The notes under the pieces: generated by a model
The model's database searches: none
What the model was told of the DNA's origin: nothing
What the model saw: only the letters and a program-made list of their open reading frames with translations
Sequence record: OZ470597.1
Length of the DNA stretch: 52,133 nt
Strand: one strand, 5' to 3'
Source of the DNA: a phage
Translations under genes and position numbers: made by a program
In this document: in pieces, positions 33,576 through 49,554 of the stretch
Layout of the letters: each line of letters begins with the position of its first letter
How positions within the stretch are numbered: position 1 is the first letter of the stretch

Positions 33576-33674
33576 GGATTATTATCATGTGGCGTTTGTT
33601 ACTTTTGCCCTTACCTGTTATGATGGCGATCTCTATTGTATACGTTGTCATAATGAGATAAGGAGAATTTTTTG

Positions 33675-34790
33675 ATGAAGCAAATCAAAATCACAGATGA
33701 ACAATTTATCAATGAGCGCAAGCAGGGAAAGACATATAAGCAGATCGCTAATGAGTATGGCATGAACGTTCGAAGCATTGAGCGACGCGCGGCACGATTA
33801 GCAAAGCAGGGTAAAGTTACAACCATCGGATCACCTGGTTTTGGTGTTACTGGAGAATCAAAGCTAATTGATAAAGATGGCAATGTGGTTATGACATGGA
33901 TTAAGACAAGCAAAGACCGCGAACAGTTAGAAGCATTAATGCATGCCGCTATGGATGCATTTAGCGAAGAAGTTCCGCGACTTGATCCGCAGCCAGAATC
34001 ACAAAAGGATTATAGCGAGACGTTATCACTGTATCCGATCTTTGACATGCACTTGGGCGCAATGGCGCATAAGCATGAATGCGGCGAGAATTGGGATACA
34101 GCAACAGCAGAGCGCGTAATGAATAATTTCATTGATTATTCCATCCAGTGCGCACCTGATAGTGAGAATGCTGTTTTGCTGATTGGCGGTGATATGCTTC
34201 ACAGTGACGGACTGGAAGCGGTAACACCTGCAAGCGGTCACGTATTGGATCAAGATAGTCGATACGCAAAACTTGTTTATGTTGCCATCCGGTCAGTGCG
34301 TCGAGCAATTACAAAGCTGTTATCAAAACACAAAAACGTCGAGATTCAGATCATTGAAGGCAACCACGACCAAAGCGGCATGATCTGGTTGCGCGCAGCA
34401 ATGGCGGCAGCATATGAGAATGAGCCGCGAGTGCATGTTGATGTGTCTCCGCGAGTAGTTCATCACACACAATATGGCAAAACGTTCCTGGCATACCATC
34501 ACGGGCATACTATCCGCAAACCTGAAACATTGCTAATGATGTGCGCGGCAGACTGGCGCGAAGACTTCGGCAATTCAAAAATGATGTATGCTCACGTAGG
34601 GCACTGGCATCATCAAACAGTAACTGAAACAAGCCTGGGCATTGTTGAAGTGCATAGCACTATGGCGGCAAAAGATGCATATGCGGCGCGCGGTGGATGG
34701 CGTTCTCGTCGCCGTGCGGCTGTTATTGTTTATGATAAAGAATACGGAGAAGTAGGGCGATTTATGCATTATCCAGAAATGTCTGGTTGA
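33675..34790 (+). CDS. metallophosphoesterase (calcineurin-like) with N-terminal HTH region
   Basis: phosphoesterase motifs GDMLH, GNHD, GHWHH; N-terminal TYKQIANEYGMNVRSIERRAARL helix-turn-helix. Confidence 0.65.
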   Translation: MKQIKITDEQFINERKQGKTYKQIANEYGMNVRSIERRAARLAKQGKVTTIGSPGFGVTGESKLIDKDGNVVMTWIKTSKDREQLEALMHAAMDAFSEEVPRLDPQPESQKDYSETLSLYPIFDMHLGAMAHKHECGENWDTATAERVMNNFIDYSIQCAPDSENAVLLIGGDMLHSDGLEAVTPASGHVLDQDSRYAKLVYVAIRSVRRAITKLLSKHKNVEIQIIEGNHDQSGMIWLRAAMAAAYENEPRVHVDVSPRVVHHTQYGKTFLAYHHGHTIRKPETLLMMCAADWREDFGNSKMMYAHVGHWHHQTVTETSLGIVEVHSTMAAKDAYAARGGWRSRRRAAVIVYDKEYGEVGRFMHYPEMSG

Positions 34791-46591: not shown

Positions 46592-47131
46592 ATGAAAAAA
46601 TACGAATTTGAACTTTGGGGCAGCAAATACCATTTTTCCACGAGCAAGCCGATTGTTATCGTTGACCTGGACGGAACGTTATCAGACGGAACGCATCGCT
46701 TGCACCTGCTTCCGACAGAAGATTTGCACCTTACAGAAAGCTGGTCTGAGTTCAACAAAGCGGCTGTTGGCGATTCTCCGATTAAGAGCACGGTTTCAGT
46801 GGTTAACGGATTGTGGATGTCAGGATTTGCCGTGGTTATCCTGACCGGACGTAGCGATGAAGTGATGGAGGACACCTGCAAATGGCTTAACGAAAACGGC
46901 ATCAAGTACGATGCGTTAATCATGCGCCGCAAGGAAGACAACCGCAAAGACACAATCATCAAAGAAGAAGTCTTGCGCGCTATCGGACTGGAAAACATTG
47001 TGTGCGCTTTTGATGATTCGCCGAACGTGGTTAAGCACTTCCGCAGCCTGGGAATCACAACCTATCAGGTCACGGAATACGACAATCCACATAATCATAT
47101 CCAATCGCATGGCGTGGAGGAATTGAAATGA
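46592..47131 (+). CDS. HAD-superfamily phosphatase (polynucleotide 3'-phosphatase-like)
   Basis: HAD motif I VIVDLDGTL, motif II ILTGRS, motif IV AFDDSPN. Confidence 0.6.
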   Translation: MKKYEFELWGSKYHFSTSKPIVIVDLDGTLSDGTHRLHLLPTEDLHLTESWSEFNKAAVGDSPIKSTVSVVNGLWMSGFAVVILTGRSDEVMEDTCKWLNENGIKYDALIMRRKEDNRKDTIIKEEVLRAIGLENIVCAFDDSPNVVKHFRSLGITTYQVTEYDNPHNHIQSHGVEELK

Positions 47132-47289
47132 CCTGGTTACTTTTAATCTTTGTCACAAGTTACAATTCCGCCGCTATTGAATCGCAAGAGTTCCACGGCG
47201 AATCAAGATGCCAGGAAGCACGAAAACAAGTTGTTCTCCACATGTCAGATAGTGGGAAAGATGTAACAGCGCTATGCGTTCGTAAATAG
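47128..47289 (+). CDS. hypothetical small protein with signal-peptide-like N-terminus
   Basis: 53 aa ORF, start overlaps upstream stop (ATGA); stop TAG inside conserved promoter element. Confidence 0.3.
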   Translation: MTWLLLIFVTSYNSAAIESQEFHGESRCQEARKQVVLHMSDSGKDVTALCVRK

Positions 47290-47329
47290 CACTTTTTGCA
47301 AAAACACATTATCGGGCTTGCGGTATAGT
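47286..47329 (+). promoter_or_regulatory. conserved-element promoter (variant)
   Basis: ATAGCACTTTTTGCAAAAAC 47286-47305; -10 TATAGT 47324-47329. Confidence 0.5.
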
Positions 47330-47360
47330 AAGCCAATCGACAACAAGCGAGGATTAAATC

Positions 47361-47624
47361 ATGGTTAATAAAGTTGAGTTTTTCAAAGCGGTAGACAAGA
47401 TTGACGGCGCGCCAAGTTTCTTTGCTATCCATTCCATTGACGGCGAAGACGTTGCATACAACGTGATTAGTCGAGACGGTATATCAAAACTTAGTGATCT
47501 GGTGGGTTATATTGTGGCAAACGGGAAATGTGCATGGCCAGATTCGCCACGAGAGCCGCGCCGCCGCGACATGCAAAATCCAGTCCTGCTTTACACGCTG
47601 GTAATTGAAGGAGTCAACAAATGA
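47361..47624 (+). CDS. hypothetical protein
   Basis: 87 aa; GAGGA RBS; downstream of promoter 47286-47329. Confidence 0.45.
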   Translation: MVNKVEFFKAVDKIDGAPSFFAIHSIDGEDVAYNVISRDGISKLSDLVGYIVANGKCAWPDSPREPRRRDMQNPVLLYTLVIEGVNK

Positions 47625-47806
47625 TTTGGTTACTTGTATTTTTGGTTGTTTTCTTTTATATTTCAGGCTTATTCATCTTCCGTGCGCTGGTGAAAACATG
47701 CGATTGCACGGATAAAGATCAGCCTCTTGTTCTGATGTTCTGGTTTGTGTGGTTTTGGGTTGCGCTTTATCAGATTGTACGGGATAAAAGCGGATTCAAG
47801 TGGTGA
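47621..47806 (+). CDS. hypothetical membrane protein (two predicted TMDs)
   Basis: 61 aa, GAAGGAG RBS, two hydrophobic helices (IWLLVFLVVFFYISGLFIF; LVLMFWFVWFWVALYQI). Confidence 0.45.
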   Translation: MIWLLVFLVVFFYISGLFIFRALVKTCDCTDKDQPLVLMFWFVWFWVALYQIVRDKSGFKW

Positions 47807-48000
47807 TTCTTACTATAGCGCATTCACGCAGTGCGCTATGTTGAGATAACAACATGAGATCATGAAGATGCGAAACTTCGAAAAAATCGTATCCAAAAAG
47901 AAGCGATACAGCTACCACGAGCACCAAGAGATGAATCAACGCTATCGCAATAAGCGCCAGCGCAAAGGTAAACATTCCGGTAAACATGGAGAAAATCAAT

Positions 48001-48591
48001 ATGAAACGAGACATTATCATCCTTAACGGACCGCCAGGAGTTGGCAAAGATACGCTTGCGGCATACTTAACGGGCCATCGTTACGCAGCGGTTAAAGCGT
48101 CATTTAAACAGCCTATGTTCGATATTGCATTCTCCATGCTTGGCGTTTACCGATATGACGAGTTCATTGATCTGTATAACGACCGTGAGCAGAAAGAAAA
48201 GCCTCAAGCAATCTTGCAAGGCAAGTCTCCGCGACAATTCATGATCTGGATTAGCGAAGAAGTCATGAAGCCAGCTTTTGGCGAGCAATATTTTGGGAAT
48301 CGCATGGTTGAGCAAGTACACGAGATGTACAGAGATTTAGCTGTTGTAATTAGTGATGGAGGATTCCCTGAAGAAATCAAGCCGCTCGTTAAGGCAGGCC
48401 ATGAAGTTCACATTTGCCGACTGCATCGCGAAGGCTTCACGTTTGATGGCGATTCACGAAACTATATTGACCTGAGCGGATACCATCACCGAGTAAAACA
48501 TTACGACTTCACAATGATTGATGGCGATCCAGAAAAGACTGTTGACGAGATCATCAAAACTGTCAAGTGGAAACACATTAAGATCAAATAG
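48001..48591 (+). CDS. P-loop kinase (polynucleotide kinase / dNMP kinase-like)
   Basis: Walker A GPPGVGKDT at N-terminus; start at ATG 48001 with GGAG RBS (ORF extends to 47986). Confidence 0.6.
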   Translation: MKRDIIILNGPPGVGKDTLAAYLTGHRYAAVKASFKQPMFDIAFSMLGVYRYDEFIDLYNDREQKEKPQAILQGKSPRQFMIWISEEVMKPAFGEQYFGNRMVEQVHEMYRDLAVVISDGGFPEEIKPLVKAGHEVHICRLHREGFTFDGDSRNYIDLSGYHHRVKHYDFTMIDGDPEKTVDEIIKTVKWKHIKIK

Positions 48592-49165: not shown

Positions 49166-49429
49166 ATGGTTTTTAATGCACTAAAACGAATCTTTAAACC
49201 TGAATACCGGATCGTTGCTTGCACAGAATGCAAGATTTATTACCTGCAACGCCGCCGCGTTATTAGTGGCGATTGGGAATACCTAACGGATGATGCTTTC
49301 GGCTTTTGGGTTATGGAGTTCAATAGCTACAGTGAAGCGCGTGAGTACGCTAAAAAGTTGCACAAGTTCCGACCTTACAAACTGCGTTTACTGGTTGTTA
49401 AAAAATGCGATGTGTGGGATCACGAATGA
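49166..49429 (+). CDS. hypothetical protein
   Basis: 87 aa; GAGGG RBS. Confidence 0.45.
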   Translation: MVFNALKRIFKPEYRIVACTECKIYYLQRRRVISGDWEYLTDDAFGFWVMEFNSYSEAREYAKKLHKFRPYKLRLLVVKKCDVWDHE

Positions 49430-49554
49430 AAAGAGTAATTATCATTTTTATTGCCGTTATCGCTGGTTGCTACCTGGCTTATAATTATCCGTTATTGCTG
49501 GTTGCTACCTGGCTTATAATTATAGCGGCATTGTTGAGTCAATCGGCGGGTTGA
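49426..49554 (+). CDS. hypothetical small membrane peptide containing a 35-bp tandem repeat
   Basis: 42 aa hydrophobic ORF overlapping upstream stop (ATGA); coding status uncertain. Confidence 0.25.
   Translation: MKRVIIIFIAVIAGCYLAYNYPLLLVATWLIIIAALLSQSAG
49454..49523 (+). repeat. tandem direct repeat, 2 x 35 bp
   Basis: CCGTTAT(C/T)GCTGGTTGCTACCTGGCTTATAATTAT at 49454-49488 and 49489-49523, one mismatch. Confidence 0.85.

Follow-up and report, generated by a model that had tools for sequence, protein, structure and literature searches.

The window analyzed here, a 52,133-nucleotide (nt) stretch of phage DNA (sequence record OZ470597.1), is an almost complete genome of a Hanrivervirus (T1-like coliphage) and contains, in its rightward early region, genes for a HAD phosphatase (46592-47131) and a P-loop kinase (48001-48591). 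These genes probably specify separate enzymes of phage deoxynucleotide metabolism, with the HAD protein acting as a 3'-phosphatase in salvage together with the kinase; the probability placed on this statement as a whole is roughly 0.55. In a preliminary description of the same DNA, the two genes had been taken for a split polynucleotide kinase/phosphatase (Pnkp)-like pair. The pair proved to be real, conserved and sometimes fused, but it is not a T4-style RNA-repair enzyme, as the kinase belongs to the deoxynucleoside monophosphate (dNMP) kinase (DNK) family. Both open reading frames (ORFs) were found on the + strand of the ORF list with the limits first described.

The kinase ORF contains the previously noted Walker A sequence, GPPGVGKDT, and was placed in phrog_139 ('dNMP kinase') with an E value of 2.6e-51. 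T4 gp1 fell into the same family over the same region of the profile (E = 1.8e-65) and T4 Pnk into phrog_505. The best match of the kinase in a fold search was 1DEK (T4 gp1), and alignment of the kinase with T4 gp1 by hhalign extended over 75 columns that covered the P-loop, D-R-E and G-K-S-P motifs, whereas profile comparison with T4 Pnk was confined to a 26-residue P-loop segment. These findings indicate both a gp1-like fold and membership of the gp1 family by sequence. The fold search and PHROGs were the only informative sources for this protein, as no model of Pfam or NCBIfam reached its cut-off and sequence searches of PDB, performed with either the single sequence or a 24-sequence profile, returned P-loop matches only. 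Kinase homologues begin at the ATG at 48001, which follows a GGAG Shine-Dalgarno sequence with a 9-nt spacer, whereas GenBank relatives call the ATG at 47986 instead, giving a protein of 201 amino acids (aa).

Experimental results for close relatives of this kinase are available from Zeng et al. (bioRxiv 10.1101/2024.12.20.629578; given in PMC12967843 as published in Science 2025), who described the triggering of Kongming defence by phage dNMP kinases, with formation of deoxyinosine triphosphate (dITP) by the combined action of DNK, the KomA deaminase and host Ndk. In that study, the DNK of phage KarlJaspers (QXV82329.1), to which the window kinase is 96.0% identical, was toxic in the presence of Kongming, while the DNK of phage Rao1 (R1DNK; 47% identity to the window kinase, E = 6e-58) phosphorylated dAMP, dGMP, dCMP and also dTMP in vitro and no longer triggered toxicity of Kongming when it carried the K15A change. 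Because near-identical and homologous DNKs have been tested in published experiments, there is little doubt that the window kinase is a dNMP kinase of the T4 gp1 family, the phosphorylation of dNMPs being expected by analogy with these homologues. The fallback offered in the preliminary description, in which a dNMP kinase was named as an equally good possibility, was therefore correct in view of both the published homologues and the PHROG shared with T4 gp1. The same PHROG and the shortness of the alignment with T4 Pnk speak against its main proposal, that this protein is the missing kinase half of Pnk, and a dNMP-specific kinase, which it had named as incompatible with a split pair, is largely what was found. 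The family is large, with 4127 representatives at 50% identity and 1463 phage records. Kinase genes that stand apart from HAD genes lie among replication and nucleotide genes, for example in the order DNA ligase-kinase-dUTPase in a Chaseviridae phage; in an Autographiviridae phage, the kinase gene is flanked by exonuclease/endonuclease genes on one side and by that of the RNA polymerase on the other.

The HAD ORF, which has an AGG Shine-Dalgarno sequence 7 nt 5' of its ATG, contains the HAD signature as originally described, including DLDGT (D25, D27 and T29; motif I), LTGR (T85 and R87; motif II) and FDDSP (D141 and D142; motif IV). K124 represents motif III, and the residues of motifs I-IV were invariant in relatives. 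The protein matched Pfam PF25109 (HAD_PNKP) with a score of 80.1 bits (E = 2.4e-22) against a cut-off of 27.6 bits, which is far beyond chance, and sequence searches of PDB matched it to phosphatase halves only, those of Pnkp1 (4xrp, E = 6e-9) and of T4 Pnk (1ltq, E = 1.8e-5). The BLASTP alignment with T4 Pnk (27% identity over 167 residues, E = 5e-11) fell entirely within T4 residues 152-300. D25, D27, T29, R36, D61, R87, R112, D116, R118, D120, K124, D141 and D142 of the window protein aligned with D165, D167, T169, R176, D187, R213, R246, D250, R252, D254, K258, D277 and D278 of T4 Pnk, respectively, the T4 numbering having been verified on the T4 sequence itself. In an alignment that included T4 Pnk, the counterparts of D165, D167, R176, D187, R213, K258 and D278 were invariant and those of D254 and D277 were conserved in at least 90% of sequences. 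Mutagenesis in the Shuman laboratory reportedly identified D165, D167, R176, R213, D254 and D278 as the residues essential in the T4 Pnk phosphatase; each has its match in the window protein (D25, D27, R36, R87, D120 and D142), as is characteristic of a T4-type phosphatase domain.

Judged by its sequence, the HAD protein is a lone Pnkp-type phosphatase without a kinase domain, and the database names 'polynucleotide kinase' and 'kinase-phosphatase' for this 179-aa protein are wrong for that reason. The statement in a paper on TLS (PMC11447400) that the product of the HAD gene phosphorylates oligonucleotides is likewise wrong. Two features distinguish the clade of the window protein from T4 Pnk, namely approximately 14 extra residues after motif I (H-R-L-H-L-L-P...T-E-S-W-x-E-F-N) and a conserved His-rich C-terminal tail, P-H-x-H-x-Q-S-H-G-V, encoded at 47083-47131 of the window. 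A fold search of BFVD added nothing beyond proteins of similar annotation. Close relatives (P0121, P0129) were found to vary at the C-terminus, a form of 206 aa having a Cys-rich extension and the 236-aa forms an unrelated one of 57 aa. The idea that the 236-aa database proteins are fusions with the flanking small ORFs was rejected, as the C-terminal extensions are unrelated to these ORFs.

The association of the two genes was evident from 80 IMG/VR loci that contained relatives of the kinase (40-98% identical) and from a separate set of 80 HAD loci. A HAD gene was present 5' of the kinase gene and on the same strand in 68 of the 80 kinase loci, always in the order HAD then kinase, which represents conservation across several lineages (kinases approximately 40-60% identical) and not 68 independent events. 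Correspondingly, a kinase gene was noted downstream in 57 of the 80 HAD loci. Gaps between the two genes ranged from 3-21 nt up to 3.3 kb, and the two coding sequences of Webervirus Sushi overlap by 4 nt. Natural single-chain fusions, in which HAD_PNKP is N-terminal and DNK is C-terminal, were represented in a library of 1.8 billion proteins by two sequences, P0257 (403 aa) and P0264 (461 aa), in both of which the conserved linker G-P-E-L-H-G is present. Three contigs carry P0257, and as the two of these that were inspected derive from separate samples, this fusion is not an assembly artefact. On a metagenomic phage contig of approximately 60 kb (L088, 9143-12751), the gene for P0257 was followed by an unannotated gene for a 386-aa protein and then by genes for a member of the PAPS-reductase family and a Dam-type methyltransferase.

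The commonest layout, seen in 34 of the 80 HAD loci and in the maps of Sushi and Rao1, was a cassette of genes for a helix-turn-helix (HTH)-metallophosphoesterase, the HAD protein and the kinase, in that order, and in other genera the metallophosphoesterase gene is the habitual 5' neighbour of the pair. This cassette is dispersed in the window, where the metallophosphoesterase gene is 12 kb from the HAD gene and the HAD and kinase genes are separated by four small ORFs, all annotated in relatives, instead of the three that had been counted in the preliminary description (Table 1). The window metallophosphoesterase contains the motifs GGDMLH, GNHD and GHWHH. Its orthologue, which is annotated 'DNA repair exonuclease' in Sushi and 'hypothetical' in KarlJaspers, is encoded in the latter phage just before the holin gene.

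The families, folds and catalytic residues of the two proteins, together with their synteny and fusions, are observations on which the following scheme is built, in which the HAD and kinase genes would ancestrally have formed one small operon. T1-like phages are known to break down the DNA of the host and to recycle the nucleotides (PMC11447400), and a paper on KanT1 (PMC13164509) likewise reads the kinase-phosphatase pair as a means of nucleotide supply. Breakdown of the host chromosome by a T1-like phage would yield dNMPs, which the broad-specificity DNK would convert, with ATP, to diphosphates (dNDPs); from these, host Ndk would make the triphosphates (dNTPs) that the host polymerase uses to synthesize phage DNA. 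As the best inference from the sequences, the HAD protein would be a Mg-dependent aspartyl-phosphatase that dephosphorylates the 3' position of deoxynucleotides or of DNA breakdown products that are short or terminal (dNp, pdNp and 3'-phosphate ends), acting together with the metallophosphoesterase, so that the salvage pathway would link all three genes and the dephosphorylated products could pass to further digestion or to the kinase step. In Kongming hosts, the activity of DNK would betray the phage, since DNK helps to make dITP.

Several points weigh against this scheme. The role of the HAD protein as a 3'-phosphatase would be deduced from 27-32% identity to Pnkp domains, and the protein shares both PHROG 415 and the insert of approximately 14 residues after motif I with T5 Dmp, a 5'-dNMPase, whereas T4 Pnk lacks this insert. 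The catalytic arginines therefore do not settle regiospecificity. The fact that residues essential in T4 Pnk are conserved was rejected as evidence for 3'-specificity because T5 Dmp matches R213 and D278 in a MAFFT alignment, these being the only ones of the checked T4 Pnk residues that were clearly matched there; the hhalign match and the sequence suggest that T5 Dmp also keeps the motif I aspartates and R176, and a K-D..K pattern was read there by eye. To our knowledge, no nuclease with 3'-phosphate products is known in T1-like phages. The linkage is also less strict than the locus counts imply, as many of the sampled loci came from close relatives, so that the counts overstate independent events, and as the HAD gene occurred without the kinase gene in 23 of the 80 HAD loci and the kinase gene without the HAD gene in 12 of the 80 kinase loci. 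Finally, deletion of dnk from Rao1 had no measurable fitness cost (bioRxiv 10.1101/2024.12.20.629578), and the role in salvage may therefore be minor.

The occurrence of HAD genes without a kinase gene bears on another possibility, unlikely in our judgment, that the HAD protein is a stand-alone polynucleotide 3'-phosphatase that acts on DNA ends, like yeast Tpp1, independently of a kinase whose gene is a neighbour through shared regulation of an early or replication module. Besides the 23 loci already mentioned, such genes are present in P1 (Pap) and in Kagunavirus phiEc3; in addition, the nearest solved relatives of the protein are polynucleotide 3'-phosphatase domains, and the HAD gene is often directly 3' of that of a metallophosphoesterase annotated as a DNA repair exonuclease. 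The fusions, the overlapping coding sequences and the constant gene order across lineages with kinases only approximately 40-60% identical are, however, hard to explain by co-regulation alone. The additional residues that follow motif I, which T4 Pnk lacks, also appear, in a model that is of low confidence in this region, to occupy the usual site of the caps by which HAD enzymes narrow the active site towards small substrates. Stand-alone homologues were noted in the P1-like phage phi456 (pap; L006, 2983-3489), where the protein is 39% identical to that of the window, and in Escherichia phage KMB43, a Krischvirus (L170, 4058-4474), where the gene lies directly after nrdB, a full Pnk and an RNA ligase are encoded besides, and the annotated start of the HAD gene appears to exclude the DxDxT motif.

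As a further alternative, the HAD protein could be a 5'-deoxynucleotidase like T5 Dmp; by depleting dAMP or other dNMPs, it would keep the kinase of the same phage from being exposed to Kongming, as in the published co-evolved DNK-Dmp module. T5 Dmp is also a DxDxT HAD, gives a full-length match to phrog_415 (E = 3.6e-57), which is the PHROG of the window protein, and has the H-R motif and post-motif-I insert in common with it; moreover, Dmp homologues have been reported, in PMC12967843 among other sources, to co-occur with DNKs as an anti-Kongming device. Direct comparison of the two proteins gave a match probability of 70% over 52 columns by hhalign, but the BLASTP alignment was limited to 17 residues (E = 0.01), and a hidden Markov model of the window HAD clade scored 13.9 bits with T5 Dmp and 13.9-16.9 bits with T5-type Dmps as opposed to 42.7 bits with T4 Pnk, the scores in the Dmp comparison as a whole being 7.7-16.9 bits. 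Results with Rao1 point in the same direction. Rao1 encodes a 60%-identical HAD protein (gp57) directly 5' of R1DNK (gp58) and yet is strongly restricted by Kongming, dAMP rises 2-3-fold during Rao1 infection, and T5 Dmp supplied in trans rescues this phage (bioRxiv 10.1101/2024.12.20.629578). A dNMPase fused to a dNMP kinase would, furthermore, compete with it for one substrate. On balance, a Dmp-like function of the window protein is considered improbable.

Least credible is the split Pnkp itself, in which, on nuclease-cut tRNA or nicked DNA, 3'-phosphate ends would be healed by the HAD protein and 5'-OH ends phosphorylated by the P-loop protein, leaving the break to be sealed by a host ligase (LigA for DNA); this was judged very improbable. 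The nearest relative of the HAD protein is a Pnkp phosphatase domain, the two genes are syntenic and sometimes fused in the order phosphatase-kinase, and the healing of DNA ends would, by reasoning only, need no phage ligase. Against this, the kinase homologues are demonstrated dNMP kinases, and the window kinase has S-F-K-x-P-M after strand 2, without a counterpart of the T4 D35-x-x-R38 acceptor motif. Neither in the HAD protein nor in its partner was a Pnk-type kinase domain with the acceptor-site motif (T4 D35, R38 and R126) found. The curated annotation of KarlJaspers, a close relative, includes no companion RNA ligase, although very distant ligases may escape annotation, and the earlier statement that no RNA ligase motif is nearby thus holds genome-wide as far as this annotation shows. 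The presence in Krischvirus KMB43 of a HAD protein of this type besides a complete Pnk and RNA ligase speaks for a function of the stand-alone clade that is distinct from the healing of tRNA ends. A search of all long ORFs of the window for K-x-DG gave 10 matches, mostly at positions of structural, tail-fibre and primase genes of the relative, which were read as chance. A paper on retron Eco2 was also set aside, as PNK was merely a reagent and Drexlerviridae merely non-targets in that work.

The preferred reading, of a 3'-phosphatase and a dNMP kinase in nucleotide salvage, might be extended to the more speculative and rather doubtful proposal that the HAD-DNK pair, its fusions (P0257 and P0264) and the metallophosphoesterase frequently encoded upstream constitute an uncharacterized nucleotide-processing machine. 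In one version, a Pnkp-derived 3'-phosphatase may channel dNp and pdNp straight into the dNMP kinase, which, if true, would imply a novel, 3'-phosphate-forming route of host-DNA scavenging. In another, the phosphatase may edit non-canonical nucleotides (dIMP and dIDP) and so tune the visibility of the kinase to nucleotide-sensing immunity.

Most of the biology concerned is known, in that near-identical genes are present in many genomes, an orthologue of the kinase has been tested experimentally and the association of the pair is already in print. No report was found of the closer relationship of the Drexler-type HAD protein to Pnkp than to T5 Dmp, of natural fusions to the kinase or of the conflict between the Rao1 results and a Dmp-like role. 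The main value of the analysis is corrective: hundreds of records of T1-like phages and at least one paper (PMC11447400) call the 179-aa phosphatase a 'polynucleotide kinase', while the neighbouring 'ATP-binding protein' is the dNMP kinase, the trigger used by Kongming. The outcome is a modest follow-up question and not a discovery, namely what role a Pnkp-type phosphatase plays when it is wired to a dNMP kinase, and sometimes joined with it in one chain, and for what reason it gives Rao1 no protection of the kind provided by T5 Dmp. Resolving this would shed light on the recycling of host DNA by T1-like phages and on whether the phosphatase clade represents a latent counter-defence.

The assignment of the window to Hanrivervirus (Drexlerviridae, Tempevirinae) follows from 92-95% identity of the 5-kb stretch around both genes with phages vojen, egaa, pSf-1 and KarlJaspers; the window begins with the gene for the terminase small subunit, and its gene order matches that of a whole genome of approximately 51 kb. 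GenBank MG065663 and about 20-39 additional 'Campylobacter phage' records were also approximately 93% identical to 46592-48591, and the Campylobacter jejuni host labels of these records look doubtful. Of the small ORFs between the two genes (Table 1), the very basic one gave no match in a family search. A scan of the region for promoters and terminators detected sites no more numerous than in shuffled sequence. Between the third and fourth small ORFs, an 8-bp inverted repeat (ATAGCGCA / TGCGCTAT) with a 9-nt loop was noted at 47815-47839; it is not followed by a T-run and could be a regulatory or processing hairpin. Downstream of the kinase gene, a 35-nt unit occurs twice in tandem (97% identical) at 49454-49523, within a small membrane-like ORF (49405-49554).

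Table 1. Positions of the phosphatase and kinase genes, the small ORFs between them and the metallophosphoesterase gene in the window.
Feature	Position	Strand	Remarks
Stand-alone HAD (DxDxT) phosphatase, 179 aa, PHROG 415	46592..47131	+	Pnkp-phosphatase / T5-Dmp superfamily; without kinase domain
Small ORF, 53 aa	47128..47289	+	phrog_5579 (E = 3e-9); annotated in relatives; start overlaps HAD stop (ATGA)
Small ORF, 87 aa	47361..47624	+	phrog_25318 (E = 3e-6); annotated in a relative
Small hydrophobic ORF, 61 aa	47621..47806	+	phrog_9755 (E = 7e-28); annotated in relatives
Small, very basic ORF (54 aa) that extends into the kinase gene	47862..48026	+	Annotated in KarlJaspers and JLBYU41
Very probable DNK of the T4 gp1 family, 196 aa	48001..48591	+	Alternative start at 47986 gives 201 aa
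HTH + metallophosphoesterase-like protein ('DNA repair exonuclease')	33672..34790	+	64% identical to Sushi gp37, 58% to Rao1 gp56

Counterparts of D165, D167, R176, D187, R213, D254, K258, D277 and D278 connect the HAD protein with T4 Pnk (PseT; 1LTQ) and Pnkp1 (4XRP), from which it differs in having neither a kinase domain in the same protein nor a partner ligase, and its neighbouring kinase is of a different P-loop family. P1 Pap ('acid phosphatase') and the Krischvirus HAD protein are likewise single-domain proteins; they fall in this clade with identities of 39-43% and contain its L-L-P...E-S-W-x-E-F-N insert but, unlike the window protein, are encoded without an adjacent kinase gene. The phages that carry the anti-Kongming protein T5 Dmp also carry a DNK, as is the case here, but T5 Dmp, at 244 aa as opposed to 179 aa for the window protein, is extended at its C-terminus and has additional inserts, and the Rao1 orthologue of the window protein, unlike T5 Dmp, gives no protection from Kongming. 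The window kinase, although smaller than T4 gp1 (196 as opposed to 241 aa), has the same Walker A sequence, G-x-x-G-x-G-K-D-T, as the DNKs of T4 (gp1), T5 (Dnk), Rao1 and KarlJaspers, and the lysine of this sequence is the one that is essential in R1DNK (K15A).

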